This document shows positions 1 to 16,000 of a stretch of 57,885 nucleotides of DNA, piece after piece (positions within the stretch are counted from its first letter, which is position 1; each line of letters starts with the position of its first letter). The stretch lies in the NCBI GenBank assembly GCA_903954185.1, contig CAJBMM010000037.1, positions 1-57,885 on the forward strand, given 5' to 3'. The notes beneath the pieces are model-generated. The model saw nothing but the letters and a program-made list of their open reading frames with translations. It ran no database searches and was not told the origin of the DNA. This stretch comes from an uncultured Candidatus Berkelbacteria bacterium. Its GTDB lineage: Bacteria > Patescibacteriota > UBA1384 > CAJBMM01. The translations under genes and the position numbers were made by a program.

Positions 1-2
1 AA

Positions 3-95
3 CTGGTCTTTAGCTCCCAGATGAGCAATGTTGGATATGTATTTCATGAGCCGAGTATACCCATGAAATCCAAAGTTTAAATAGATCTGTTGCAT
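3..95 (-). CDS. 5' part of a hypothetical protein running off the window edge (MQQIYLNFGFHGYTRLMKY...)
   Basis: AAGGAG SD 4 nt before the ATG at 95; frame open to the window start. Confidence 0.45.
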   Translation of the reverse strand, partial: MQQIYLNFGFHGYTRLMKYISNIAHLGAKDQ

Positions 96-243
96 ACTGC
101 TCCTTATTCCTTGGAGTCCAGTATGTTAATGAACTTTTGCACCAAGAATAGTTGTTAGTAAATAGTGTTTGGTTCGTAGTTAATATACTAATAATAAATT
201 TTTTGTTATGATCACCGCATCTCGCGCCTCACAGGAGAAAGCA

Positions 244-468
244 ATGCCAGGATATGACATCCTAATTGCGCAGTACGGAGCGGTTAAGATTGAGAAAAGC
301 CGGGGATCAGAACCTGCAAAGCCAAAGTCCGACGCTCAATTAGAATACGAGCAGCATTTCCTCGAAACAATGGGGCACCCCATGCCTACACCGGAAGACC
401 CGCACGTTAAGCTGACCGATGCCGAACAAAGCCATCTTGACGCACTCGTCGAGAGATGCGGCGCTTAG
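244..468 (+). CDS. small hypothetical protein (~74 aa), GC-richer than flanks
   Basis: AGGAG SD before ATG at 244, inside ORF 208..468. Confidence 0.5.
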   Translation: MPGYDILIAQYGAVKIEKSRGSEPAKPKSDAQLEYEQHFLETMGHPMPTPEDPHVKLTDAEQSHLDALVERCGA

Positions 469-611
469 GCTGTGCAAGCGGTTTTGTCTGCTCTCGGGAC
501 AAGAATGTTCCTCGCCGGGCATCAGAAGCACTTTGAAGCCACCTGCCCGCATGAGGAATAATCTCAGGCAACGCAGCCTAGAATCACTCCAAGCCGCCCG
601 CACATCACACC

Positions 612-641
612 CGCCTCCGCAGACCACCGCGGAGGCGTTTT
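612..641 (+). terminator. intrinsic terminator
   Basis: CGCCTCCGC-8nt-GCGGAGGCG followed by TTTT, between convergent genes. Confidence 0.65.
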
Positions 642-656
642 CGTTTAAAATCTACA

Positions 657-2579
657 TTATTGTTGTGTTTTATTTATTTTAGGAAGCATTATAAGCAAAA
701 AACTCGCACATACTAAAACCAATAAAAGTATTTGAGACGCATGCATAACATCATCTCCGGTGGCAGCTAAGCCAATGTTAATACCAAGTTTAAATGAGGC
801 GAGCGTATACTGACCGTCGGTACCAACAGATTGGATTGTTACAGTATGATCTCCATTGGGAATATCTGAAGAGGGAGTACAAGACCAATTACCATCGTTA
901 TCGGTAATAGTAGAGCATGTAATAGGATCGGAATGGATTGTGACAGTTACGCTTGAATTTGGCGAAGCAATACCACTAAATGTTGGTCGATGGCCAGTGT
1001 AATAATATTGGCTATATTTCTCATTAAAGTTAATTGTACCCATTTTAAGTAAAGAAAGCGTAGCGCTGGTTGCGGTAACTGAGGTAGATGTCGATGTGGT
1101 AGTAGTTGGCGAGCTGGTGGCGGTAGAAGTTGCTAGTGTTGGAGATGGAGTTGGAGAGGGATCAGTATTATATGTCATACAGCCATAACACGTAGCAGAT
1201 TGTGTATAGTTAGTGACTACAACATCCGCAGTTCCCACAGCGTGTGCTGGAGCAGTGGCTGTGAGTTTTTCAGAAGAAACGAAAGCAATATTAGTAGCTG
1301 CTACTCCACCGATAGTTACGGCGGCAGTAGTTATGCCAGCAGTTGATGTTAATAAATCAACAAAATTTGTGCCATTAATCGTTATAGATTCACCACCTGT
1401 AATATTCTGGGGATTATTTCCTGTTACAGAAGTAATGGTGGGAGCTGCTGTTATACCAAGGTAATCAATAAGAACATCTGCAAACAGTTTATCTCCGGTT
1501 GTAGTCATATGAACTCCATCAATCCAAAGTCCCGCAGCATTGGCTGTTACATACGCGCCAGTAAACTTACTAACTTCAACATAACCATAACCATTTTGGC
1601 GCGCAAGATCTTGAAGCGATGGGAAATATGCACCAACGTCTCCGGCTGGTCCTGTTCGGGTTCCAATAGTCGGAGGAGTCAGAATAATCGGAACCGTTGG
1701 TTTTACCACTCTTATTCTGCCTATTATCGTTTCAATATTGGCTATATAATTGCTAACAGATACAGAGGATATATCATTCGTTCCCAAGGTAATAATTACC
1801 ACACTCGGATTAAGCTGTGTTATCTCGCTTTGCCATAAACCAGCATTTGCCGCTGCCCAATGTGATCCTCTTGAACCGCTCATCCCCAATTTATCAACTT
1901 TAATTCCTCCGGAATTAGCAATATTGCAATCAACACCAAACAAAGTGACACCTGTCGTGCCAGCTGTGTTGAGCGTCATTAGGATAGAGTGCTGTGCAAG
2001 TGTTTGGCCGCCAATATTAATTGTTCCTAGGGCATTTGAAGTATTGACGGTAGAAACTGTTGTCGCACTGCCAGAATCAATTGAATAATTGAACGAGCCT
2101 CCACCCGATTGTTTTAAATAATAAATTGTATAATCAGTACCAGTACAAGTAACACCTTTCGCTGCTGGCGTAGCGACATCAGTCGAATTAGTATGCATAA
2201 TATTAGGGCCTAAACCACGTGCAGCGGAAGAATCAGTCCATGTGCCCACAGATGTTTTTGTTGCATCGGCTAGAGCTATATTATAAGGATAAGAGTCTAC
2301 GGGTACATAACCGGCCCCAGCAAAAGGGTAACTGGAAACTATTTTATTATAGAACTCAAGAGCAACGTGATTTCCTGCCGTCCACGAATCTCCGATATAC
2401 GCTATTGTGCTGTTTGGATTAACTAAAAAACCACAGTTAATATTAGATGGATTGCAATTAGGATAAAGCGATTCACCTGGAATATAGGTAGCCGAATAAA
2501 CTGAAGTTAGAGTAATGAAGAAAAAGGCTACAAAAAAGAAAAATAATAAGCAAAATTTAAAAAATCTATGAATTTTTAT
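657..2579 (-). CDS. sortase-anchored SGNH/GDSL esterase with IPT/TIG domain, S/T linker, Ig-like domain and LAATG sorting signal; probable ATA/ATT start
   Basis: Frame is open 110 codons upstream of the listed GTG (2249). That stretch encodes a signal peptide (IKIHRFFKFCLLFFFFVAFFFITLTSVYSA) and SGNH block I (IAYIGDSWTAG). Block III TLGTND and block V DGVH lie downstream. C-terminus GLAATGDD + TM + basic tail. Confidence 0.85.
   Translation of the reverse strand: MKIHRFFKFCLLFFFFVAFFFITLTSVYSATYIPGESLYPNCNPSNINCGFLVNPNSTIAYIGDSWTAGNHVALEFYNKIVSSYPFAGAGYVPVDSYPYNIALADATKTSVGTWTDSSAARGLGPNIMHTNSTDVATPAAKGVTCTGTDYTIYYLKQSGGGSFNYSIDSGSATTVSTVNTSNALGTINIGGQTLAQHSILMTLNTAGTTGVTLFGVDCNIANSGGIKVDKLGMSGSRGSHWAAANAGLWQSEITQLNPSVVIITLGTNDISSVSVSNYIANIETIIGRIRVVKPTVPIILTPPTIGTRTGPAGDVGAYFPSLQDLARQNGYGYVEVSKFTGAYVTANAAGLWIDGVHMTTTGDKLFADVLIDYLGITAAPTITSVTGNNPQNITGGESITINGTNFVDLLTSTAGITTAAVTIGGVAATNIAFVSSEKLTATAPAHAVGTADVVVTNYTQSATCYGCMTYNTDPSPTPSPTLATSTATSSPTTTTSTSTSVTATSATLSLLKMGTINFNEKYSQYYYTGHRPTFSGIASPNSSVTVTIHSDPITCSTITDNDGNWSCTPSSDIPNGDHTVTIQSVGTDGQYTLASFKLGINIGLAATGDDVMHASQILLLVLVCASFLLIMLPKINKTQQ
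748..1056 (-). repeat. shared C-terminal Ig-like + LAATG cassette, copy 1 of 5
   Basis: near-identical DNA (acatcatctccggtggcagc...ctccattgggaat...) also at ~2666, 5096, 7436 and 10018. Confidence 0.9.
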
Positions 2580-4416
2580 CCTTAATTTTTAATTTGTTTC
2601 TTACTAAAAGTATTGCAAAAAATGATGCAGACAGGGTTATTATCAGCCATAAATTGATTTGTGAAACATCATCTCCGGTAGCGGCTAAGCCAATATTAAT
2701 ACCCAGTTTAAATGAGGCGAGCGTATATTGACCGTCGGTACCAACAGATTGAATGGTTACAGTATGATCTCCATTGGGAATGTCTGAGGTGGGAGTACAA
2801 GACCAATTACCAGCGTTATCGGTAATAGTAGAGCATGTAATTGGATCGGAATGGATTGTGACAGTTACGCTTGAATTTGGCGAAGCAATACCACTAAATG
2901 TTGGCCGATGGCCAGTATAATAATACTGGCTATATTTCTCATTAAAGTTAATTGTACCCATTTTTAGTAAAGAAAGTACGGGGGTGGTTTGCGAGGTGAC
3001 GGTAGATGTTGTCTGTACTACTGTTGAAGTTTCTTCTGTTGTGGTAGTTGGCGAAGCGGTAATGGTAGAAGTCGTTGCAGCAGGAGTTGGAATTGCTTCT
3101 GTGGTAGCCGAGGCACTTGCAGATGCATAACCAACACCTTGGGCATTTACACCGCGGACATAAACAGAATACGAGCTGTTAGGGTCAAGTATGTCCTGGG
3201 TCCAGTTGGAGGTTGCTGAGGTAATCGTTGTTAATAAGGTATTGTCAGCCGCATTATAAACTTTGTATCCCGTGGCTCCCGCAACATCATCCCAATCCCA
3301 AGAAATTGATGTTTGCGAGACGGTACTGCTGGTTAAGCCCGTGGGTTGGATTGGCGGTAAATAGGCTGTACCCAACCCTGGGCCTATTGACTCGGCAATG
3401 ACACTATCCATTGTATAACCAGCGCCAATATTTAGCGTTCCCGTTGAACCAGCAAGAGCGGCTACGATGATTGACCCGGTCCTTCTATTGACTACACCGC
3501 CATTAATCACGTTTAGTGTACCCGTGCCAGAGTAACCAACTCGAGGAGTGCCAGCAGTGAAATTTAATTGCGAGCCAGTTCCGGTCACGGTAACTGATCC
3601 ATTACTTCCTGCTAGTCCGCCGATTTGCCAAGGCCCAGCGGCAGTATTAACTACAGCACCATTTGAAATCGTTAATGTGGCAGTACCCGACAGGCCACGA
3701 CCAATATACCCCAACCCACCAGCAATATCAGAATTCCAAACGGTGTTTGCGCCGCCTACCTCAATATTTGCGGTTGTCCCAACATCATAAGCCGCGGAAA
3801 TATTACCCGTGCTAACTGTAGCACCGTTTAAAATATTAAGGTTACCGACACTCCCGGTAAAATTACCCATGCGGACACGCGTATCGCCACTAATGGTCTG
3901 TGTGAGCGAAGATCCAGAACCAGTTACGGTAATTGTTCCATTTCCTGTTGAGGCATTACCAATCACGATCCCGCTGCCGCCTGGGGGGGCAGTAACTGTT
4001 CCGCCATTTGATACATAAAAGGTACCACCGTCCGCTACTAATTGTGTGGCGATAATCACAGAAACGCCACTGACCGTGACTGTCCCCGTATAACCGGGAT
4101 TAGTTTTAAAATATTTAACTGATAAAGCAGAATCAACTGTGGCGCTATTTAAACAATTGCTCACAAAAGTTACGGTATCAGTTGGTCCTGGTATATTAAG
4201 GTTAGCGCTATCGGCACATGCGCCAGCAGAAGTTTTCCAATTGGCTGGATTGCTAGTATTGGAATTGGTAGTACCGCCAACCCAGTAATAAGTTGCGGCG
4301 GCGCGAGCAGGAAGAGGAGTCGCAAAGAAATACACTGCAAATATAAAAGGCGCAGCTAAGAATGTTATAAAACTATAAAACCTTTTATTGGCTATAATAT
4401 GAAGACTATTCATCAT
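2566..4416 (-). CDS. sortase-anchored adhesin-like protein: passenger-like Gly-rich beta repeats (T5SS/PEP-CTERM-associated-like), FN3, T/S linker, Ig-like domain, LAATG
   Basis: signal peptide; repeats of GxGTxTV(T/S)GxGS type; FN3 motif ISWDWDDVAGATGYKVY...YSVYVRGVN; GLAATG + TM + KK tail. Confidence 0.85.
   Translation of the reverse strand: MMNSLHIIANKRFYSFITFLAAPFIFAVYFFATPLPARAAATYYWVGGTTNSNTSNPANWKTSAGACADSANLNIPGPTDTVTFVSNCLNSATVDSALSVKYFKTNPGYTGTVTVSGVSVIIATQLVADGGTFYVSNGGTVTAPPGGSGIVIGNASTGNGTITVTGSGSSLTQTISGDTRVRMGNFTGSVGNLNILNGATVSTGNISAAYDVGTTANIEVGGANTVWNSDIAGGLGYIGRGLSGTATLTISNGAVVNTAAGPWQIGGLAGSNGSVTVTGTGSQLNFTAGTPRVGYSGTGTLNVINGGVVNRRTGSIIVAALAGSTGTLNIGAGYTMDSVIAESIGPGLGTAYLPPIQPTGLTSSTVSQTSISWDWDDVAGATGYKVYNAADNTLLTTITSATSNWTQDILDPNSSYSVYVRGVNAQGVGYASASASATTEAIPTPAATTSTITASPTTTTEETSTVVQTTSTVTSQTTPVLSLLKMGTINFNEKYSQYYYTGHRPTFSGIASPNSSVTVTIHSDPITCSTITDNAGNWSCTPTSDIPNGDHTVTIQSVGTDGQYTLASFKLGINIGLAATGDDVSQINLWLIITLSASFFAILLVRNKLKIKDKNS
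2666..2976 (-). repeat. shared C-terminal cassette, copy 2
   Basis: almost identical to copy 1 at the DNA level. Confidence 0.9.
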
Positions 4417-4460
4417 ATATAGTTTATTCTATAACTAGCAAGTTAGTCAATTGCATAGTG

Positions 4461-5027
4461 CTAATTTGGAATCGCTTTAACAACAATTCTTTTTAAAAGC
4501 GTTTCGTCGGAACATGTATAGATAATCAGTGCTCCATCATTAGTTGGGTTTAGAATTGAAATATCATCTTTGCTCACCTCAAAAATTGAGTCTACTGTGT
4601 AAAGATATTTCACCCCATCCCAATAGATAGCCAGAGCATCTCCATTTTTTAACTTATCCAAATTATACAAGGTGGTACGATTGGGAGGTAAATATTTAAA
4701 TCGATGACCTGCAATAACTACACTTGTAGTACCAACTTGACCAGCCTGAAGCCAAACCCCCTCTTGATTATCTAATACTCCTACTTCATCACCCTCAACA
4801 ATTTGAGAGTCTACATCTATTAAATGAATAACAAGCCTGCGACCGTCTGGAATCTTTTCACTTTCTAATATTTTAGTTTGATCAACGTTCCTCTTCACTG
4901 TAAAATGCTCAACGTTGTAGAATACTCTTGGCAATATCGGTAATAAAATAAATAATAATGAAATTAAAATAATAATAACCAAAATGATTTCTATAATACG
5001 ATTTTTAGTTAGTTTTAATTTTTTCAT
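4461..5027 (-). CDS. sortase
   Basis: N-terminal TM anchor; catalytic His (IAGHR), Cys (IIYTC, a TLxTC variant) and Arg (KRIVVKA); embedded among LAATG proteins. Confidence 0.9.
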   Translation of the reverse strand: MKKLKLTKNRIIEIILVIIILISLLFILLPILPRVFYNVEHFTVKRNVDQTKILESEKIPDGRRLVIHLIDVDSQIVEGDEVGVLDNQEGVWLQAGQVGTTSVVIAGHRFKYLPPNRTTLYNLDKLKNGDALAIYWDGVKYLYTVDSIFEVSKDDISILNPTNDGALIIYTCSDETLLKRIVVKAIPN

Positions 5028-7335
5028 ACTTAGTCCTAAACAATAATATGGTTATCGCTATTAATAATAAACTTAATATCTGTGATATATGCATAACATC
5101 ATCTCCGGTGGCAGCCAAGCCAATGTTAATACCAAGTTTAAATGAGGCGAGCGCATATTGACCGTCGGTACCAACAGATTGGATTGTTACAGTATGATCT
5201 CCATTGGGAATGTCTGTAGTTGGAGTGCAAGACCAGTTGCCGTTACCATCTGCGGTAGTGGTACAAGTAATTGGGTCAGATTGAATAGTAACAGTAACTT
5301 TAGCATTAGGTGGAGCAATGCCAGTAAATTTTGGTCGGTGGCCTGTGTAGTAGTAGCGGTTGTATTTAGAGTTAAAATTTATTGTACCCAACTTTACAAG
5401 CGTAAGAGCGGCAAGACTGTTAGATGAAGTGCTTTGAACAACGTCACTTGTTGTTTGAGTAGCATCACTAGAAGATGAGGCAGAAACAACCTCTAAATTT
5501 ATTGTTTTGCTATAAGTATCTGAAATTTGACCAATCGCATCCTTGTACTTTACATAAACTGTTTTGGCACCATTGCCATCACCAAGAGTCCAACTTTTAG
5601 TAGTAACGAAGTCTTCCCACTCTACACCACTAAATGACGCGTCGTTACTAATTTGCATTTGACTCACTTCGCCAAAATTAGAAATAGAGCTTAATGTTAA
5701 AGTAACTACCCTTGTTGGTGTGGAATTTGCACCATCTGCTATATCAATACCCCCACTCGCAAATGCTGCATAACTTACCGGGTCGGCCGCGACAGCAGAA
5801 AATTCAGATGTTGAGCCAAGGGTATTCGTAGCTGTTGCGGTAATTTTATCTATGGCTGTTGGGGTAGCGCCAGTTATCGGTACTGCCAACGCAATATCAT
5901 TTCCAATTTCTGTAGTTGTTACCGAACCAATAAATGTCTCTCCTGGTCCGCGGCCAGAAGAATGAATTGTAGTATTATTAAAGAATTCCAGTGTATATGG
6001 GGCTTCGTCCGCTTTAAAATCTAAATTAGCTTTAACTAATAATTTACCGTCGCTAGATAACCCCATTTTAGTAATTACGGGATAATTCATTCGATCATTA
6101 TAACTTGTATCTATATCACCTGCATCATTGGGGGTCGCTGTGCCGTATACTAAATCAATTGGTGTTCCTGTAACGTTATGTATGCTATTTTGACTAAAAC
6201 GATTCCATTTGGAATTTCCATTTTGCAAGGCAATAGCAGCATCTGATAGGTGCGCAAAAGTATTGCGAGCAATTGTCCAACCAGTAGCTACCCCATTGTC
6301 GGTAACTCCTGGCTCTACAAAACTGCTCTGCAAATCATCATTAAAAGCATTTGTGCCAAAATAGTTTCCTTGGATAATTCCATCAGATCCGGATATTCTT
6401 ACTAAAGTCCGCTTGTTAATATTGATACAAGCAAAAATATTACTTTCCTCAGTGTCAGAAACTCCATCGAGATTGGTTCCAATTCTTGTTCTATCGCCAT
6501 TTGCCTGCAGAAAATAACGGTACATCCCACCCGTTCCACATGTTCTGCTGGTTTTATCTACGCCAAAGTAGTTTCCAGAAACAATATTGTCTGAATCTGC
6601 CGCCGCAACAAATTGAAAAGCACCACCGCTTTGATTTGTTCCCCACATTTGAATTAAATTACGTTCGCCGTTGTCGTTTACGCCATCGCCGTTTGTGCCA
6701 AATATATTTGCTGTAGACCCAGTTTGCACGGTCGTAGTTCCAAATGCACTAGACGTACTTCCGCTAATGTTGGTTGCAATAAAATTGCCTTCTATCCAAT
6801 TATTACTAGATGCAGTAAATTGCATCCCCCCGGAAGTAGATGACCCCATATTTAAACCAGCAAGATGATTATTGCCAACATTAATAGTAAATAATGGACC
6901 GCCGGTTATAGAAACACGTATTTTCAAAACCGTATTAAGTGTTTCTCCAAATGCCGCTGTATTTCTTGAAGCGCCAGCTTGCGAATAACCATTAATAAAT
7001 ACACCTGCTGTATCGCTTAAGATGTAATTTGCGTTTGTTGAAAGCAAAAAATATCCTTGAACATCGCCTGCAGGGGGAATATAGCCGCCGTCAGATTCGG
7101 GAATATTAAAATTAATAGTATCGGCACCAACATTAGCATTTGCTGCTGCTACCGCCTCTCGCAAAGAACAATCGGCATTACAACTTCCATCGTTTGTATC
7201 TGCAGTTTTTGTAACAGTAAAGGTTGTGGAGCTAGCTTTAGTGAAATTTTGCACAAATAAAGAAGGCACTATAACAGCTAGAATAACTATTAATATTGAG
7301 AACTCTATATATTTATTGACTGCAAAATACCTCAT
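5005..7335 (-). CDS. sortase-anchored CSLREA-domain / parallel beta-helix surface protein
   Basis: FTVTKTADTNDGSCNADCSLREAV motif; GNYFGT/GNFIAT beta-helix repeats; shared Ig-LAATG-TM tail. Confidence 0.85.
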   Translation of the reverse strand: MRYFAVNKYIEFSILIVILAVIVPSLFVQNFTKASSTTFTVTKTADTNDGSCNADCSLREAVAAANANVGADTINFNIPESDGGYIPPAGDVQGYFLLSTNANYILSDTAGVFINGYSQAGASRNTAAFGETLNTVLKIRVSITGGPLFTINVGNNHLAGLNMGSSTSGGMQFTASSNNWIEGNFIATNISGSTSSAFGTTTVQTGSTANIFGTNGDGVNDNGERNLIQMWGTNQSGGAFQFVAAADSDNIVSGNYFGVDKTSRTCGTGGMYRYFLQANGDRTRIGTNLDGVSDTEESNIFACININKRTLVRISGSDGIIQGNYFGTNAFNDDLQSSFVEPGVTDNGVATGWTIARNTFAHLSDAAIALQNGNSKWNRFSQNSIHNVTGTPIDLVYGTATPNDAGDIDTSYNDRMNYPVITKMGLSSDGKLLVKANLDFKADEAPYTLEFFNNTTIHSSGRGPGETFIGSVTTTEIGNDIALAVPITGATPTAIDKITATATNTLGSTSEFSAVAADPVSYAAFASGGIDIADGANSTPTRVVTLTLSSISNFGEVSQMQISNDASFSGVEWEDFVTTKSWTLGDGNGAKTVYVKYKDAIGQISDTYSKTINLEVVSASSSSDATQTTSDVVQSTSSNSLAALTLVKLGTINFNSKYNRYYYTGHRPKFTGIAPPNAKVTVTIQSDPITCTTTADGNGNWSCTPTTDIPNGDHTVTIQSVGTDGQYALASFKLGINIGLAATGDDVMHISQILSLLLIAITILLFRTKYEKIKTN
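5096..5396 (-). repeat. shared C-terminal cassette, copy 3
   Basis: near-identical to copies 4 and 5. Confidence 0.9.
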
Positions 7336-9909
7336 TTAGTTAACCCGCTTTACCGCATCACCTTTGTTAATTAAGACAAAACCACCTAATAAAAGTGAGA
7401 TTAATACTATGAACAATATTGTATTAATTTTTTCAACATCATCTCCGGTGGCAGCTAAGCCAATGTTAATACCAAGTTTAAATGACGCGAGCGTATACTG
7501 ACCGTCGGTACCAACAGATTGGATTGTTACAGTATGATCTCCATTGGGAATATCTGTGGTTGGAGTGCAAGACCAGTTGCCGTTACCATCTGCGGTAGTG
7601 GTACAAGTAATTGGGTCAGATTGTATAGTAACAGTAACTTTAGCATTAGGTGCAGCAATGCCAGTAAATTTTGGTCGGTGACCTGTGTAGTAGTAATGAC
7701 CGTATTTAGAGTTGAAGTTAATAGTTCCTAATTTAAGTAAGGTTAATGTTGTCGTTTCACCATTCGAGTTAGTAATGGCACTAATGTTTCCTGCCAAATC
7801 TTTAAACTGTACATATACTACTCTACTAGAGTTAGAGAATGTCCATGTTTTTGAAGTTGAATAGTTTTCCCAAGATGCCTGGTTTAGAGCATCAATTGTT
7901 TCACCTAATCTCATGTAGCCCACTCCACTTGAAACACCACTACTAGTAGGGTCTGAAGCAGAGATATTTAAGGTGGCTGTGTTTAAAGATAGATTACCAG
8001 TGGAATCTAGTTTAATTGTACCGTTGGGAGCAGTGGTATCAATATTTAAGGTACTGGTACTACTAGTAGTAGTGTTTCCTGCTACATCATATGCCACAAC
8101 ATACCAAGAATGAGCTCCTTCAGAGATCCCAGCGGCTGGCGTGTAGGTGGTGGCAGTAGCAGATATATTATCTGCTAACAATGAATCGTCTAGATATAAT
8201 TGGTATTTAGCTAAACCAGATGCTGCATCGCTAGAGGCATCCCAGCTAAATGTGGGCATTGTCACATTAGTGGTGGCATTAGGTGAAGGTGATAAGGAAG
8301 AAAAAGATGAAGGAATGGCTGTATCTACAGTTACTGTCTTATTAATTGTCGTGCTATTTCCTGCAACATCATACGCAATAACCTCTATTGTGTGATCGCC
8401 TACGGCTAAACCAGAAATGGCATATGGCGAAACAGCAACAAGAGCAGCACTGCCATCTACAGAAACTGTGTAGTAGCTTATTCCGCTTAAATTATCAGAT
8501 GTTGCAAAAGTAATCGAGGTGTCTTGATGATTAAAATACGAGCCGTCATTTAGTCCAATAATAAAATCTAATGGACTAACTGAATCTGGTAACCAATTAG
8601 AATTATTATTCGAATTATTACTTGCCGGCCCGTAATAGATAGTAGATGAATTTACATTATTAGAATCTTTAACATCTACGTATTTAATGTCACGAGTACC
8701 TTGTGGATTAATTGAAAACTGAGTATCGGTAACAGATGATCGTAAAGATAATAAATTATTCGCCGCACCCTTAAGAGTTAGAGCCCCCTGGATAGTGGTA
8801 GTGGTTGAAGCTGGAAATGTTAATGTAGCTGCCGAAGTAACTGTTTTACTTAAATTATTAAAGGTAAAAGCACCGGCAATAGTTTGATTCGTACCAGTAA
8901 GTAGCATTGTGCCATTATTGTGATTAAATGTTCCGCCAGTATATGAAAGATTTCCAGAGACCTGCGTATTCCCCGAAGAAGCGGTGATTGAACCAGTGCT
9001 GCTAATCCCGAAATTTAAAAGCCGTGTTGCGCCAGCATTTGGCAGGATGATTGAACCTGAAGAAACTGCCAAATAAATATTATCAAAAGTTGTATAACTG
9101 GAAAAATCTAAATTTGCACCCTGTACATAAAATTCTTTTGTATTACCATAATAACCAGTAAACCCCTCAAACCCTGCGCCTGCATAATAATAAATCCGAT
9201 TATATTGGTTAAAAGTACCTGTACCTTGAATTTTACCAGATAATCCTATTCTGCCATAAGGAACACCAGCAGTCGAAGTGCCAACCGGCAAAGTACAAGT
9301 GCTTCCAATTGTTTTAAGAACGCTGCCCGACGTCCATCTTAATCTGACTTGATTAAATACGATATTGTTACAATTAATTGTTGATCCTACAGATCCATCA
9401 ATATAAAAAATTCCATTATTCGCATCAAAAGTACCACCATTTACCTGAAATCCTAAGGCAAAGTAGCTTGAGGCAGATGAAGCGATAAAGTTCGCCCCCA
9501 CATTCATGGTAAAATTACCATTAATATCTAACAGCTCATCGGTAGCATTAAAAGTACCAGCCGATTGGGTAAAAGTGCCAGTTGTTTGAAAAGATGCATT
9601 AAGTGTTAGCGTTCCGCCGTACCCTGCATTAATAGAGAGAGAGGCAACATTATACAAGCCTGCGTTTCTTAAATCAATCCAATTTTGATCGAGCACTGAA
9701 TCTGCGCTAGACGTGCCATCAAAAACAACGGTGTCGCCACTTACCGGACAAGCACTTGCCGACCAATTTGCGCATGTACTCCATAAGCTATCACCGCCTA
9801 AACCAGTCCAAGTTCTTGTAGCCGCTGCGTTAACAATCGGCACTCTAGAAAGCAACGCAAAGCTTAGAGCATAAAGTAAAAGTATTAATTTAACTTGAAA
9901 ATTCTTCAT
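7336..9909 (-). CDS. sortase-anchored surface protein: passenger-like beta-solenoid plus tandem Ig-like domains
   Basis: signal peptide; RTWTGLGGDSLWSTCANWS..CPVSGDTVVFD start; Ig repeats (YDVAGN, DTTAP); shared tail. Confidence 0.85.
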   Translation of the reverse strand: MKNFQVKLILLLYALSFALLSRVPIVNAAATRTWTGLGGDSLWSTCANWSASACPVSGDTVVFDGTSSADSVLDQNWIDLRNAGLYNVASLSINAGYGGTLTLNASFQTTGTFTQSAGTFNATDELLDINGNFTMNVGANFIASSASSYFALGFQVNGGTFDANNGIFYIDGSVGSTINCNNIVFNQVRLRWTSGSVLKTIGSTCTLPVGTSTAGVPYGRIGLSGKIQGTGTFNQYNRIYYYAGAGFEGFTGYYGNTKEFYVQGANLDFSSYTTFDNIYLAVSSGSIILPNAGATRLLNFGISSTGSITASSGNTQVSGNLSYTGGTFNHNNGTMLLTGTNQTIAGAFTFNNLSKTVTSAATLTFPASTTTTIQGALTLKGAANNLLSLRSSVTDTQFSINPQGTRDIKYVDVKDSNNVNSSTIYYGPASNNSNNNSNWLPDSVSPLDFIIGLNDGSYFNHQDTSITFATSDNLSGISYYTVSVDGSAALVAVSPYAISGLAVGDHTIEVIAYDVAGNSTTINKTVTVDTAIPSSFSSLSPSPNATTNVTMPTFSWDASSDAASGLAKYQLYLDDSLLADNISATATTYTPAAGISEGAHSWYVVAYDVAGNTTTSSTSTLNIDTTAPNGTIKLDSTGNLSLNTATLNISASDPTSSGVSSGVGYMRLGETIDALNQASWENYSTSKTWTFSNSSRVVYVQFKDLAGNISAITNSNGETTTLTLLKLGTINFNSKYGHYYYTGHRPKFTGIAAPNAKVTVTIQSDPITCTTTADGNGNWSCTPTTDIPNGDHTVTIQSVGTDGQYTLASFKLGINIGLAATGDDVEKINTILFIVLISLLLGGFVLINKGDAVKRVN
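7436..8340 (-). repeat. cassette copy 4 plus extended stalk duplication shared with 10018..10910
   Basis: ~0.9 kb of strong DNA similarity encoding PTFSWDASSDA...TTTLTLLKLGTINF...GLAATG. Confidence 0.85.
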
Positions 9910-12863
9910 TTAGCTTTTCCAAATATAATATTTTTAAGCAAGCTGTGATTTGTAAGTAAAACTAAAGTTAACCCAGTAAATGTTAGCAAAAGGGCAAAAA
10001 CCAATTCAACGCGTTTTACATCATCTCCGGTGGCAGCTAAGCCAATGTTAATACCAAGTTTAAATGAGGCTAAAGTATACTGACCGTCGGTGCCAACAGA
10101 TTGGATTGTTACAGTATGATCTCCATTGGGAATATCTGTGGTTGGAGTGCAAGACCAGTTGCCGTTACCATCTGCGGTAGTGGTACAAGTAATTGGGTCA
10201 GATTGTATAGTAACTACTACTTTAGAGTTAGCAGAGGCGATACCTGTAAATGTAGGGCGGTGTCCTGTGTAATAATAATGGCCGTATTTTTCATTAAAGT
10301 TAATAGTTCCTAATTTAAGTAAGGTTAATGTTGTCGTTTCACCGTTTGAGCTGGTAATGGCACTAATGTTTCCTGCTAAGTCTTTAAATTGAATGTAAAC
10401 AATACGGCTAGAATTGGCAAATGTCCATGTTTTTGAAGTTGAATAGTTTTCCCAAGATGCTTGATTTATGGCTTCTATCGATTCACCTAATCTCATGTAG
10501 CCCACTCCACTTGAAACACCACTACTAGCAGGGTCTGAGGCAGAGATATTAAGTGTTGCGGTATTGAGAGAAAGTGTACCAGTTGAATCTAGTTTAATTG
10601 TACCGTTAGGGGCTGTGGTATCAATATTTAAGGTACTGGTACTACTAGTAGTAGTGTTTCCTGCTACATCAGTTGCCACAACATACCAAGAGTGTGTGCC
10701 CTCAGATAATGCTGTGGAAGGTGTATAGGTAGTAGCAGAAGATATAATATTGTCTGCAAGTAATGTACCGTCCATATATATCTGGTACTTAGATAAACCA
10801 GATGTTGCATCGCTAGAGGCATCCCAGCTAAATGTTGGAGCGGTAATGTTCGTAAATGTATTAGATGAGGGTGATGAAGTGGAGAATGAAGAAGGCGCAG
10901 TGTTGTCCACAGTATAGTTAAAAGAGCTTGTGATGCCAGTATTAGTAAAGTTGGTTGGCAAAGAATCGAATGTAGTAGTTATGTCTGTTGTGATTTTATA
11001 TGCAGCTGCCTGCACAGAAGCGCTCTTTAATCCAGGCAAGGAATCTGCTGGAACAGTGTAGGTTCCTGTCCAGGTAGTATTAGTACCGTCGGTAGAAGCA
11101 TAGGTTAAAATAACTTTATCGCCATTTGGCATAACTGCTTGTACAATATTATTATCGGTGGTCGCCGGGTCATTTTTTAACATAGAAGAAGTGGCTGTTA
11201 TTTCTATAGTGCTTCCTGCACGAGTATAAGTTGGAGAAGAGGAAGTGAGCGTCCAATCCTTCATTGAAGTGATAGACGCTACTCCACCACGATACGAACT
11301 AAAATATAAATGCTTATTTGCACCAATTGCGACATTCTGCCCTGAGGAAAAAGATGAATTTTGCCATTTTTTTGAACCATCGGTAGCATCGATTCCAAAG
11401 CCGGGAGAATAATAAATCATATTGTTTCCGGCATAAAGCATATTGTCGGTGCCAGCATTGTTAGAATAAGTATCGGTAGATGTCATCTGAACACTGCCGT
11501 CTGTAGTTGAATATGCCCGAAGTTTAAAATCGCCAATAGCGGGATAGTTAGCTATTAAGTAATAAAGAGAGTCATTTCTAGATAAATTCCCACTGGTATA
11601 ATTTTTAAGATTATCGCTAGTGGCAAATTTAAGGGTTCCGTCTGAGTTCATACCGTAAAACCCAAGCGCACCGCCTAATGCTGGAGAGTAAGCACTACCA
11701 TCCGCTGCAACAGATGGAGCTCTAAGTGTTCCCTGAGTTGCAGCGCCAATCATAGCGCGCAAACGTCCATCAGGATACGAGCTACTAAATTTGCGGCTGT
11801 CATGAACTGAATAAATAATTCCAGTATTTGGATCTATACTATCGCCACCAGAACGATTATTAATATTAACGCTTGTATATTTTAGCGATCCATCAGAATT
11901 GTAAATACAGCTATTGTTTCTGCCTGTAGCATAAACAGAACCGTCAACTCCGATGTTTACCGCTCCTTTCGAGCTAGTTGTGAGATTAGTACAAAGATTC
12001 GACCACAATTGCGTTCCAGTATTCTTATCCAAAGCTGTTACATAGTGTGTCCCAGTCATAAAATAGATCGAACCATTTTGAGAAAGCGCCGCAAACGATG
12101 GCGCAGACGTTGCAACACTCCAGCGCAACACGCCACTTGAGGTGTAAGACATATACGCCGAATCAGTTCCGAAATATAGATTACCGTCACCATCGACAAG
12201 TATGCCGCTATAACTAACGTTTGCCCCCGATGCAGTTGGCACACTCCATTCTAAGGTCGAATATTCTGGCCCTAATAGCGCAGTATTGCCCGAAGATCGC
12301 ATATCAATTTGGTATTTTGGATTAGGGGCACTCGTATCAAGCCCGTCGTCTGTTGTTGTGATGGAAAAAGTTGCAGATGTTGTTGGGCCGTCAATGTTAA
12401 CGTCTACCGATGTTTTTGTTTCAACCGATCCTGTATATGTTGAGGCGGAAGTAGAGTTGTTGGTGATGTTGTCTAGTACAATGTATTTTGCTCCAGCAGC
12501 TGAAGCGGTTCCTGTTGCATCGCGAGTAATTGTAATTACCTGTCCTGCTATGGAAACCGATCTACCACCATCAATTCCACTCCAAGAGTCAAAAGTAACT
12601 CCAGACACCCCAAAACCATCTGGAAAAGTAATAATAATCTTAGCATTGTTTGGTGTAGAAGAAACTGTAGTAAAATTAATTGTATATTTACCCGTTGTGG
12701 AAATGTCGGAATTCCAAGGAACAATTGTTACAGAAGTTAAAGATGCTGCGTTAACTGGAGTAAGTTGAATAAATAATGAAGTGCACAGCAAAGTAAGAGC
12801 AAAAAGTATATTAAAACAAATTGGCTGACCTATTTTTCTGAAAATAATATAACTATTCATCAT
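9906..12863 (-). CDS. sortase-anchored surface protein with PQQ-like beta-propeller and Ig-like stalk
   Basis: signal peptide; PQQ-like repeats (DGNLYFGT, GTQLWS, DGSLKY, DGSKKW); shared tail; ATGA overlap with the next gene. Confidence 0.85.
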   Translation of the reverse strand: MMNSYIIFRKIGQPICFNILFALTLLCTSLFIQLTPVNAASLTSVTIVPWNSDISTTGKYTINFTTVSSTPNNAKIIITFPDGFGVSGVTFDSWSGIDGGRSVSIAGQVITITRDATGTASAAGAKYIVLDNITNNSTSASTYTGSVETKTSVDVNIDGPTTSATFSITTTDDGLDTSAPNPKYQIDMRSSGNTALLGPEYSTLEWSVPTASGANVSYSGILVDGDGNLYFGTDSAYMSYTSSGVLRWSVATSAPSFAALSQNGSIYFMTGTHYVTALDKNTGTQLWSNLCTNLTTSSKGAVNIGVDGSVYATGRNNSCIYNSDGSLKYTSVNINNRSGGDSIDPNTGIIYSVHDSRKFSSSYPDGRLRAMIGAATQGTLRAPSVAADGSAYSPALGGALGFYGMNSDGTLKFATSDNLKNYTSGNLSRNDSLYYLIANYPAIGDFKLRAYSTTDGSVQMTSTDTYSNNAGTDNMLYAGNNMIYYSPGFGIDATDGSKKWQNSSFSSGQNVAIGANKHLYFSSYRGGVASITSMKDWTLTSSSPTYTRAGSTIEITATSSMLKNDPATTDNNIVQAVMPNGDKVILTYASTDGTNTTWTGTYTVPADSLPGLKSASVQAAAYKITTDITTTFDSLPTNFTNTGITSSFNYTVDNTAPSSFSTSSPSSNTFTNITAPTFSWDASSDATSGLSKYQIYMDGTLLADNIISSATTYTPSTALSEGTHSWYVVATDVAGNTTTSSTSTLNIDTTAPNGTIKLDSTGTLSLNTATLNISASDPASSGVSSGVGYMRLGESIEAINQASWENYSTSKTWTFANSSRIVYIQFKDLAGNISAITSSNGETTTLTLLKLGTINFNEKYGHYYYTGHRPTFTGIASANSKVVVTIQSDPITCTTTADGNGNWSCTPTTDIPNGDHTVTIQSVGTDGQYTLASFKLGINIGLAATGDDVKRVELVFALLLTFTGLTLVLLTNHSLLKNIIFGKAK
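10018..10910 (-). repeat. cassette copy 5 plus extended stalk duplication
   Basis: matches 7436..8340. Confidence 0.85.
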
Positions 12864-12867
12864 ATTT

Positions 12868-12896
12868 ATTCTATCTACTAATCATGAAGTAATCAA
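12868..12896 (-). promoter_or_regulatory. sigma70 promoter, probably leaderless, for the sortase operon
   Basis: TTGATT-17-TAGAAT ending 4 nt before ATG ATG. Confidence 0.55.
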
Positions 12897-12974
12897 TAAA
12901 ACACCGGTAATCTAACCTTTATTTACTATAAAGAGATAGGATGTTATTTCATAAACAAAATACTTGTAAATAAA

Positions 12975-13028
12975 TTACAACTTAACACACCAAGTCCAAC
13001 GGCCAAATTTAGATCCACGCAATTTACA
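12975..13028 (-). pseudogene. 17-codon remnant homologous to the C-terminus of the 17514..20246 protein
   Basis: translates CKLRGSKFGRWTWCVKL*, versus CEPTKQIRSRWTWCVKL*; DNA ttaacacaccaagtcca is repeated at 17521. Confidence 0.7.
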
Positions 13029-16000
13029 CTAACGAATTATATTAAGCACGCTTTTAGTAGAACTGGACTCAAACCAATCGTCCCCGCTAAGACTACAATC
13101 TACACGATGAACGCCCAAGGTAATGCCCTTCGGTGGAGTGTAACGGATAGTCGCCCAACCGTCAGCATCTGTCCAGGCGCCTCCTATGTAATTGCCGTCT
13201 ACCGAGAATGTTAAGTAGGCATAATCGAAAGGAGGATTACCGCTCATTAAATATCTCGCTAATGCCCTAATTTCGACTTCCTCTCCAGCCGCAGCGGATC
13301 TGTTGCCAGAAAATAGATATGTTTTCATTTTACTAACAGTGAAGGTGGCTGTATTCTGGGATGACTTAAACTGGCTATCTCCAAGCCATTTTACCGTAAT
13401 GTTACTTTGCTGGTTGGGATAAAACTCTAAACCTTGGGTGGAAAGCTGAGCTTTCCCTTCGCCGTCAGTGACAGATGAGCCGACAAGTTTATCACCTAAC
13501 CAAAAATTTAATATCTTCCCCGAGATTGGCTGGCTATTTGAAGATTTGTAAAGATACCCCTTAAGAATTGTCGTGTTACCGTATTGAATATCGCGATTCG
13601 GTACATATATTTTGCTATTTTCGGAAGTACTTGTATATACCTCATCGGACTCAATACTTTCTTGGCCATTTCTCACAGCAGTAACAACATAAAAATAATT
13701 TGTTTTTGCGGTTAAACCAGTGTGAGTGTATGGAGTTGGTATATTTTCAATCTTCTGACCAGTCTTTTTATCAACTCCCTTGTTTTCACTCCAATATAAA
13801 TTATAGGAGGTTGCGCCGTTAACAGGGTTCCACTTTAAACTCACACTATTTTCGCTAGCGGTTATTGAAACATTTTGTGGAGCATTTGGTGCAGTGTTTT
13901 GTGGTGGTTTGATGTAAAAACGACTGGAGTATGAGTCATGCAGATTCATGGGCCATTCGTTATTAACTGAAGGTCCGTTCGTTTTTATTACGTTAATAAG
14001 CATTTTATGCACAACAGAATTATACGTAATAAACACAATCTCATTTTTGCCATCAGCGTCTATGTCACCTGCGGCACTACCGGTACTGTAAAATTCGCCA
14101 CTCGATATTTTGGGGTACCCATTAATAGCATGGCCAGTACCATCATAAATATTATAACTCGATGTCCATGCTGAGCCCTCTGCATAACCCCAATACCCAG
14201 TTGTGAAAATATTTTGACGGCCATCATTTTTCGCACCAATTATCGCCATGTCTTCACGATCATTTACAGAGAGAAATGGCCTGCATTCGTTCATGTAACC
14301 GTATGTATCATAAATTAGCACTCCACTTGGGGTATAAAACATTGGGCACTGCTCGGATGCAAACGCTAGCTCTGGTTTACCGTCATTATTAATATCGCCC
14401 ACAGCTATGCTTTCCGTATTATAGAAATTATTGATATCATGTAGAGCAGGTTGCCAGTTATATAGTTCTTGGCCATTGTTTGCCAATACGATTATCCTTC
14501 CAACAGCATTCGAGGTGTATGGCCACTGCCTCAATGTCCTAATAATAATCTCTTTATTGCCATCGTTATCAATATCTGCCACAACCAAAGCAGATGCACT
14601 TATTTGCATTCTTAATGGCCAGCCTGGTAATTGTCGGCCTTCCATGTCTACAACTGACACCATAGCATTTAGCTGGTTTTCGGTGTTAATGCGTTGGCTT
14701 AGCAAGATTATTTCGTTTTTCCCGTCGCCATTAATATCTCCAACTGATGGATAAAGCCCATTAGTTAACCCACCATAATTTAATCCCGGGATTTTTCTGG
14801 AAACAATTTTTTCCCCAGTATAACTCCATATAGCCGCATCTATGAATGGATTAGTATTATCGTTGTAGTTCATCATGCTAAAAGTAACAATGTCTAGTAC
14901 GCCATCAGCATTCATATCTGCCAACAAAACGGTGCGAGTGTTAACATACTTCGGCCAGCCCGATAACAAAATGCCATCCGAGTTATAGACATATAGACTA
15001 TTGCCATTTCCGGCCACAATTTCTATTTTACTATCACCATTAATATCACCCGCAAGAAACGGTTCAATAGAAAAGTTAGTGGGACCGACTCTAACAGGCC
15101 ATCCAGGCAACTCATTTCCATCTCCAGAAAAAGCGTGAATTAAGCCGTTACGATAAACTAAGACATCTGATTTCCCATCTGAATTAATATCTGCAACCAG
15201 CGGCGATTTAACATCAAATTCATAATCCCCGTCACTCATACTTAAAGAAATAGGCCAACCATTTTCCATATCAGCATCTATGTAAACCTGAATTGATGAT
15301 TCTCTTTTAATATTAGCGTTTACAGTGAGCTTTAAGAGATATGGGCCAGACTTAATACCGGGAATAAGTGACGGCGTCCATTTACCCAAAACCCCCATAT
15401 TTACAGTTCTCACTCCATCAGCATCCAGTGTAATGCCCGTAGATTGCCAACCTTCTTTGCAGTCACGGGTGCGGCCAACGCGATTATAAAAACCATCCAT
15501 TAAATTTACCTTGCACCAAGAGAGATAATAATTTTTAAACCCCTCACCCGACGCAACGCCCTTGATTTCAATTTCATTATTCACCATATGAATAATCTCT
15601 GCGTCTTTGCCGTTTCCAAATGGTAGCGGGCTTGTTATGATTGCATGATTGACCCGCACTAGGGCATTATCTATGTTTGTTCCCGTATCAGAAAGAACAA
15701 TTAGCCTCAAATAAATATCAACGCCATCGTTAATGCGAGCTATATTCCACTTTGCAAGCTCACCATTGGTTACAGGGGTGCTAGATTCAGCTATTAATTC
15801 CCATCCAGAGGGATTAGAAGAATAAGTGTAATATAATTGATAATTAGTAAACCCTTTTCCATACGCAGAACCAATAATACTAGTGTTATTTTCAGAAATC
15901 AGCCCATTTGTCGAGATACTTGAAGTAGGTGGTGGATTAGCAGCAGATACCGCTTTGTATGCGTCCACGCGCCCAAATCCTTGGGTATTAAGATCATACT

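Follow-up and report, generated by a model that had tools for sequence, protein, structure and literature searches.

Alpha-like proteins of group B Streptococcus, M-like proteins and Sdr proteins carry variable heads on a conserved wall region with a sorting signal and are tandem paralogues shaped by recombination, and the 'choice-of-anchor' concept describes one head family that occurs with alternative C-terminal anchors. Here we report a sortase gene flanked by five genes for surface proteins (g1 to g5) in an uncultured Candidatus Berkelbacteria bacterium, all five of which end in an immunoglobulin (Ig)-like domain fused to the motif LAATG (the cassette). The genes lie on contig CAJBMM010000037.1 of assembly GCA_903954185.1, which was analysed over its whole length of 57,885 nucleotides (nt; hereafter the window) and is contig C37 of a draft genome of 998,031 bases in 43 contigs (96.6% complete). 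We consider it likely that the locus is a sortase-display operon in which purifying selection and short-tract gene conversion together keep the cassettes alike and rarer exchanges re-associate heads, cassettes and tails, with no programmed switch. The design is the familiar Gram-positive one and overturns nothing. It is unlike the families of the Gram-positive cocci in its single Ig domain fused to the motif, in the five different folds that serve as heads and in its divergent sortase within a host genome of ~1 Mb, and compared with the choice-of-anchor concept it appears to allow the donor of the new anchor of g1 to be identified, namely a neighbouring g2-type gene. New here are this ~1 Mb host, an unclassed sortase among LAATG substrates, the Ig domain as the constant unit and a documented gain of the module.

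Class E sortases read Ala at position P3 of the signal via a conserved Tyr in the beta3/beta4 loop, according to the part of the source that was available (PMC5148588). The same part places Phe92 of CpSrtD, the class D enzyme of Clostridium perfringens, at the position of the class E Tyr and reports that CpSrtD prefers LPQTGS and does not process LAETG (PMC5148588). The substrate table of Corynebacterium diphtheriae SrtF includes the LAATG proteins DIP2062 and DIP2093 in the portion available (PMC12445094), and class E/LAXTG display is described in the same two partial sources for Streptomyces coelicolor SrtE1/E2 with the chaplins (PMC5148588, PMC12445094). The present locus resembles actinobacterial class E display in the Ala at P3, in the exact LAATG of C. 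diphtheriae and in its housekeeping-anchor logic, with secreted protein, motif, transmembrane (TM) helix and basic tail in succession. It is unlike it in that its enzyme is not class E, the beta3/beta4 region is shorter, and the substrates are encoded in what appears to be one operon and share a whole Ig domain. In the candidate phyla radiation (CPR), the sortase family fam000526 is found in more than half of the genomes and is near-ubiquitous in Microgenomates, as far as the available part of the source goes, which reports presence only (Meheust et al. 2019, PMC6744442); like that family, the sortase of the locus belongs to a bacterium whose genome is very small. The literature searched describes no LAATG sortase array in small-genome or CPR bacteria, and there was none on sortase-substrate arrays with gene conversion among the matches listed.

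Five surface proteins around a sortase

On the minus strand, from 12863 to 657, six close-set genes follow one another in the order g5-g4-g3-sortase-g2-g1 (Table 1), so that the sortase open reading frame (ORF) is flanked by five ORFs of the same strand for secreted proteins. The overlap of g5 and g4 is 4 nt, g3 directly abuts g4 and overlaps the sortase start by 23 nt, the gap between the sortase and g2 is 44 nt, and the g2 stop (2566-2568) is overlapped by the start region of g1. We infer that the six genes form one operon, which probably starts in the gap upstream of g5 and ends at the terminator-like hairpin behind g1.

Domains were called with Pfam and NCBIfam profiles, and signal peptides were read directly from the sequence, without a predictor. 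All five proteins have a signal peptide, a Big_13 domain (PF19077; 34-75 bits, cut-off 27), the string GLAATGDDV no more than 5 residues after it, a hydrophobic helix and a Lys/Arg-rich tail. This agrees with the original prediction, made from the letters of the window, of five secreted proteins around a sortase (here a PF04203 match), each ending in an Ig domain and GLAATGDD. The head families that it had named are borne out for g1, g2, g3 and g5 and fail for g4, the head of which matches no Pfam or NCBIfam family; the sole lead for this head is an Atlas cluster with a G8 domain in 14% of its members (G8/beta-helix-like). The heads, predicted to be unrelated, are so except for a weak N-terminal cap common to g2 and g4 (E 0.003). 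On g1 there is also a weak match to CoaZ, a 'choice-of-anchor' NCBIfam family (22.9 bits).

Mosaic cassettes and their relatives

The cassette was defined as the 103 codons ending at the V of LAATGDDV, and its five copies, which a repeat search of the window returned as one family of five 300-nt direct repeats, were aligned codon by codon. The last 129 nt before the boundary (3' block) are 88-96% identical in all ten pairs, and the preceding 180 nt (5' block) fall into two subfamilies, g1/g2 (97%) and g3/g4/g5 (78-89%), with an identity of 68-71% between them. The near-identity of cassette DNA that had been claimed for the whole cassette thus holds in the 3' block and within the subfamilies, and not between the subfamilies upstream. 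The codon analysis, for which a 147-nt 5' half was taken, gave differences between the subfamilies at 27-29 of ~34 synonymous sites, with a non-synonymous divergence (dN) of 0.13-0.17. Identity stops 0-3 nt past ...GATGATGT, and the next 45 nt are 27-51% identical, just as originally described for the boundary behind LAATGDDV and the differing tails.

Between the subfamilies, the six pairs have 5-15 differences over the 129 nt of the 3' block and 52-57 over the 180 nt of the 5' block (Fisher p 1e-9 to 2e-4), and heterogeneity between blocks reaches p<0.01 (Fisher) in 8 of the 10 pairs, the exceptions being g1-g2 and g3-g4, both within a subfamily. The branching order changes as well: in the 5' block the closest copy to g1 is g2 (97% versus 70% to g4), and in the 3' block g1 is nearer g4 (96%, 5 differences) than g2 (92%, 10 differences). 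Along the stalk of g4 and g5 (294 aligned codons to the V of LAATGDDV), stretches of as many as ~40 identical codons are interrupted by groups of synonymous and non-synonymous changes, and near codon -80 the DNA of g4 ceases to be g5-like and becomes g3-like. Because saturated synonymous sites stand beside synonymous identity within one domain, protein-level selection or codon bias is excluded as the cause, and mosaic synonymous divergence together with discordant topology is the signature of gene conversion. Gene conversion among linked copies, on top of purifying selection, therefore explains the cassette pattern, and the predicted homogenisation of a constant C-terminal module by recombination stands.

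The genome contains six copies of the cassette, all of them coding. The sixth, on contig C12, reads LVATG, has 65% amino acid (aa) identity and a Big_13 score of 43 bits, and is 59-66% identical to the others at the nt level in both blocks. Its gene (G000:C12:12801-14954; L058:3802-5946, minus strand) encodes an NHL-repeat head, two stalk domains, Big_13 and LVATG, and converges, at a distance of 136 nt, on the gene for a 535-aa large serine recombinase (Resolvase + Recombinase + Zn ribbon; L058:2058-3665, plus strand); it may lie at the edge of a mobile element.

For comparison, 40 genomes of relatives, none of the same genus, were searched, and foreign proteins with the cassette were found by word-index search. 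The best cassette match among the 40 relatives is a generic Big_13 domain (50% over 62 aa). A library-wide Big_13 search returned 3582 proteins at E <=0.001, led by giant multi-repeat proteins with 27-45% identity, and a cassette identity of at least 84% was found only in proteins of this lineage. Metagenome contigs scanned with the cassette gave just two distant Big_13 loci (44-48%), genome contigs scanned with the foreign protein P0006 gave three unrelated weak loci (27-41%), and none of 210 candidates for short or broken cassette-bearing proteins gave a score. The foreign proteins with the cassette are three, P0005 (orthologue of g5, 62%), P0006 (of g4, 84%) and P0008 (of g2, 75%); P0005 and P0006 are each recorded on one 8731-nt contig, taken as the same, and P0008 on a 4446-nt contig. 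In total, an orthologue in relatives is found for four of the five heads, with identities of 62-90%, and the head of g3 has none in the 40 relatives searched.

Cassettes and stalks do not follow the heads in these orthologues. Over the last 40 residues to LAATGDDV, g2 and g4 are identical (40/40) and P0008 shares 27/40 with g2 (manual count); a 50-column window over the 3' block gives 56% identity between g2 and P0008, and the windows of the head give 64-90%. At this place paralogues are nearer to each other than orthologues. Further 5' in the cassette, g4 resembles g3 in this genome and P0006 resembles g5/P0005, which together with the DNA switch near codon -80 indicates a g3-to-g4 conversion in this lineage. 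One stalk window has 27/30 identities between g4 and g5 versus 18/30 between g4 and P0006, the orthologues being closer in the other windows. As for the tails, that of P0008 is g1-type and not g2-type, that of P0006 is unlike g4, and only those of g5 and P0005 correspond, so that tails are discordant with heads in two of the three orthologue pairs.

A further exchange concerns g1. Orthologues of its head, P0156 (90%; also recorded on a 4446-nt contig, presumably the one with P0008), P0159 (89%), and P0157, P0158 and P0163 (74-83%), are without the Ig-LAATG cassette; at their C-terminus a linker or extra domains precede a plain TM helix with a basic tail. The homology of g1 to them ends right after the TIG domain, and beyond TIG g1 is homologous to g2, including the linker, each 60-nt window across the cassette having 54-60 identical positions. 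Since the head orthologues have no cassette and g1 matches g2 past TIG, g1 appears to have gained its linker, cassette and tail from a g2-type gene. In relatives, the g1-type SGNH + TIG head is joined to four or more different C-termini (a simple TM anchor, a long additional region with a TM helix, LysM, and a peptidoglycan-binding-like region). The predicted recombination of heads onto the anchor is thus supported by the g1 orthologues without a cassette, by the g1-type tail of P0008 and by the switch within the g4 cassette. In P0164, a 1095-aa protein of another organism, a g2-type head (T5SS/PEP-CTERM repeats + fn3) is fused to a g1-type SGNH domain, with a peptidoglycan-binding-like C-terminus, which suggests that the g1 and g2 heads work together.

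The open frame of g1 continues as far as 2588, and the part before the listed GTG start encodes the signal peptide and the catalytic GDS block. The 5' extension contains no ATG, GTG or TTG; it contains ATT (2573-2571), 5 nt after AAGGA (2583-2579), with an in-frame TAA at 2591-2589, and this ATT is the likely start to judge from the sequence. The DNA that matches the extra N-terminal residues of P0156 is now occupied by the tail of g2 (window 2566-2590), and a rearrangement junction is therefore probably located there.

Comparison of g5 with P0005 gives identities of 16-34% for the propeller (residues ~200-540, window ~11240-12260), 86-96% for the N-terminal domain and 66-100% for the C-terminal stalk; the propeller has either been replaced or is diversifying very fast.

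Several observations weigh against the reading of the locus as a display operon shaped by conversion and module exchange. Identity peaks at the 3' edge of the cassette and ends within 3 nt, where simple conversion with two-sided homology predicts decay. Across two cassette windows, g5 and P0005 share 60 of 60 residues even though their propellers have diverged as described; the cassette is conserved between genomes, and part of the cassette likeness is therefore not due to conversion. The proposed alignment of the five cassettes with synonymous divergence (dS) gave a conversion signal among the copies, and the comparison of orthologues with paralogues is at the protein level only. The start of P0156 is a canonical Met 11 residues upstream of that of g1, which has no canonical start codon, and g1 may be poorly expressed or decaying. 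The pairing of sortase and substrates rests on adjacency only. Finally, the Logan contigs of public sequencing runs break at every cassette and none bridges it, the linkage of heads to tails resting on the original assembly.

Table 1. Genes, cassette copies and flanking elements of the sortase locus, with positions in the window.
Feature	Position	Strand	Description	Source or basis
g5	9906..12863	-	985 aa: signal peptide, conserved N-terminal domain, PQQ_2/BamB-like propeller, two Big_13/OmpL47-like domains, stalk domain, Ig cassette, LAATG, TM, basic tail	Pfam/NCBIfam
g4	7336..9909	-	857 aa: head without family, stalk (294 codons) common with g5, Ig cassette, LAATG, TM, tail	
g3	5005..7335	-	776 aa: CSLREA N-terminal domain, stalk domain, Ser/Thr linker, Ig cassette, LAATG, TM, tail	Pfam/NCBIfam
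Sortase	4461..5027	-	188 aa: N-terminal TM helix, catalytic His108, Cys172, Arg180	Pfam PF04203
g2	2566..4416	-	616 aa: T5SS/PEP-CTERM-associated repeats, fn3, Ser/Thr-Pro linker, Ig cassette, LAATG, TM, tail	Pfam/NCBIfam
g1	657..2573 (listed ORF 657-2249)	-	SGNH/GDSL esterase, TIG, Ser/Thr-Pro linker, Ig cassette, LAATG, TM, tail	Putative start
Cassette copy in g1	747..1055	-	High-identity block 747-875	
Cassette copy in g2	2665..2973	-	High-identity block 2665-2793	
Cassette copy in g3	5095..5403	-	High-identity block 5095-5223	
Cassette copy in g4	7435..7743	-	Chimera, g5-like upstream and g3-like from ~codon -80 on; stalk common with g5 to 8316	
Cassette copy in g5	10017..10325	-	Stalk common with g4 to 10898	
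Gap upstream of g5	12864..13028 (165 nt)	-	Three promoter-like hexamer pairs	Consensus scan, not above shuffled controls
Hairpin	612..637	.	GC-rich, 9 pairs (8 G-C), 20 nt downstream of g1 stop	Consensus scan only

Directly upstream of the locus lie two further minus-strand genes, one for a 1488-aa membrane-anchored subtilase with FG-GAP repeats, fn3 and Big_3_5 and without a sorting signal (window 13029-17495), the other for a 910-aa protein with a Pro-rich N-terminus and without a Pfam family (window 17514-20246). Their products are probably further envelope proteins.

The sortase and rival explanations

The sortase matches PF04203 with 64.1 bits (cut-off 26.6) and TIGR01076 with 39.5 bits (cut-off 39.35). 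In an alignment with nine homologues of relatives, His108 and Cys172 are invariant in all ten sequences and Arg180 in all eight that cover it. The structure model has a predicted local distance difference test (pLDDT) value of 81, and the top PDB fold matches listed are all sortases. Classes A, C, D and E all fall within E 1e-9 to 4e-8 in this fold search, which is hence non-discriminating, and class E structures rank 39-44. The best PDB match by both sequence and fold, and thus the closest solved structure, is class D SrtD of C. perfringens (4d70; E 7e-9 over residues 48-184, fold E 1.2e-9). The array enzyme is unlike CpSrtD in that the identity is 28%, the class D scores are below cut-off and the neighbouring proteins carry LAATG. 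Class D assignment was rejected on NF033746 (37.1 bits, cut-off 165) and NF058671 (42, cut-off 140), class C on 35.4 bits against a cut-off of 160, and class E on NF033747, with 22.4 bits against a cut-off of 160 and below the class C and D scores. The sortase fits no curated class and is not class E by sequence or fold, and the class E enzyme that the original prediction implied has to be given up, although that prediction is right that LAxTG in general is the motif of class E. Trp92 stands opposite the Phe of IGHFEN in 4d70 (chain position 91 by manual count in a phmmer alignment), taken as F92 of the published work, at a place where the alignment is uncertain. The beta3/beta4 loop has no Tyr and is 5 residues shorter than in relatives.

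Homologues of the sortase occur in 23 of the 40 relatives, with identities of at most ~41%. Within 1.5-kb flanks, 4 of 29 homologue loci have a plausible sorting signal (two LPETG, one LVSSG, one LVSTG) and none of the 29 has LAATG. In two distant relatives (G015 and G037, loci L048 and L050), genes adjacent to the sortase end in LVSSG or LVSTG with a TM helix and a basic tail, which resembles the LVATG of C12; signals with a residue other than proline at P3 may be widespread in this class. Among the 1264 open frames of at least 100 aa in the genome itself, the plausible sorting signals are five LAATG, all in the array, one LVATG (C12) and one LPKTG (C36). The genome has two MraY-type genes and three for penicillin-binding protein transpeptidases, so that a peptidoglycan acceptor is available. 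On C36 a 533-aa LPKTG protein with DUF11 is encoded behind a 648-aa one that has three stretches of DUF11 (L059:3659-5260 and 5260-7206, minus strand), and a second sortase is truncated at a contig end (G000:C41:8073-8243). These may constitute a second, pilin-like sortase system, and two sortase-motif pairs in the genome are plausible.

It is improbable that the array enzyme is instead a polymerising, pilus-type sortase that joins some or all of the five proteins into a fibre via their Ig domains. Class C and D models score as well as any (35-42 bits) and class C structures are among the top fold matches, but all class scores are far under their cut-offs. The second sortase with its separate LPKTG/DUF11 protein would suggest a division of labour. 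Against a fibre, regular expressions found a YPK pilin or E-box-like motif in none of the five proteins, and the substrates are multidomain enzymes or binders of 600-1000 aa, not small pilins.

We regard as very unlikely that the cassettes are sites of high-frequency shuffling, in the manner of shufflons, pilin cassettes or targets of diversity-generating retroelements (DGRs), that would vary host attachment within the population. Five direct repeats with a sharp common 3' boundary are what such a system might use, past exchanges are certain, the g5 propeller is hypervariable between relatives, and the genome has three reverse transcriptase (RT) genes and a large serine recombinase beside the C12 copy. 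The array, however, consists of five complete genes with their own signal peptides and has no silent or promoterless cassettes, and no recombinase or RT domain was found among its proteins. A shufflon or invertible segment was rejected on the inverted repeats, which are just two weak pairs (24 nt at 79%), and on that lack of a recombinase domain in the array; a DGR target was rejected since the RT genes lie off-contig, all six cassette copies are coding and there is no template repeat. The RT genes (RVT_1; C39:12847-13482, C39:19632-20144 and C13:15576-16079) are unlinked to the array, have no extra cassette copy or template near them, and may belong to DGRs or retrons. Contigs of four runs, although contigs drop rare variants, have neither alternative joints nor variant letters. 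Since relatives retain four of the five heads at the identities given above, the modularity is a matter of evolutionary tinkering and not of fast switching. The plug-and-play locus that had been predicted is correct over evolutionary time and lacks support as an active mechanism.

An assembly artefact, in which short-read repeats were collapsed, duplicated or mis-joined so that the copy number or the pairing of heads and tails would be wrong, is more unlikely still. It would fit the breaks of the Logan contigs at the cassettes, the draft state of the 43 contigs and the origin of all four public runs from one lake-water study, which possibly includes the source sample. The Logan contigs nevertheless cover positions 1-14000 with zero differing letters and no joints, and every copy-specific variant is reproduced in the four runs. 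The longest exact repeats between copies are 26-122 nt, mostly <=70 nt, and thus short enough for paired reads; the same full-length proteins are called on 5-12 contigs (g2 and g3 on 12 each), and depth over the unique parts is even (~23-41x). P0005, P0006 and P0008, which come from other assemblies, have the same architecture of head and cassette.

Old paralogy with purifying selection on protein and codons, without conversion, would account for a cassette protein that is almost invariant between genomes (g5 and P0005) while heads diverge, but is the least credible explanation in view of synonymous sites that are saturated 5' and near-identical 3' under similar protein constraint, the flip in topology, the alternating runs of g4 and g5, the diverged 3' block of P0008, which shows that the protein sequence is not absolutely constrained, and an unlinked C12 copy that is diverged throughout.

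Proposed working and significance

As a sortase-display operon, the locus would work as follows. Each protein would be exported by the Sec pathway with its own signal peptide and held at the membrane by the TM helix and the basic tail. The sortase would then use Cys172 to cut LAATG between Thr and Gly, as the established sortase mechanism implies, and the Thr would be joined to lipid II or peptidoglycan precursors. The Ig domain would be a pedestal and might also belong to an extended recognition signal, a role that would explain its near-invariance between genomes. The tails would be discarded after cleavage and hence be free to diverge, and diverged tails may in turn stop the extension of heteroduplexes and so give the sharp boundary.

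Purifying selection would act on Ig-LAATG, presumably for its fit with sortase and wall, and repeated short-tract conversion among the tandem copies would have made the last ~130 nt uniform in all five and left a patchwork upstream. Rarer exchanges through the same homology would account for the g2-like linker, cassette and tail of g1 and for the overwriting of the g4 cassette by that of g3. It is conceivable, though we hold it to be rather doubtful, that Ig-LAATG is in addition a portable, self-homogenising anchor and a recombination hub that captures heads (g1 being caught in the act) and retargets binding modules (the g5 propeller), served by an unclassified sortase lineage with a specificity for Ala at P3 (LAxTG/LVxTG) that is independent of class E and possibly reads the Ig domain too.

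How small-genome bacteria build and change their surface is largely unknown, and the proteins of this array are obvious candidates for contact with cells or substrates. The cell was originally proposed to be an episymbiotic CPR bacterium that might vary its attachment to a host in this way; in the present data genome size (998 kb at 96.6% completeness) is the one feature that points to CPR. The array provides a testable displayed set, consisting of an esterase, two beta-helix-like proteins, a CSLREA protein and a propeller, together with a candidate sortase whose preference for LAxTG, if true, would be independent of class E. It is also a clean case from nature, contained in 12 kb, for separating the effects of gene conversion, of purifying selection and of module transfer.

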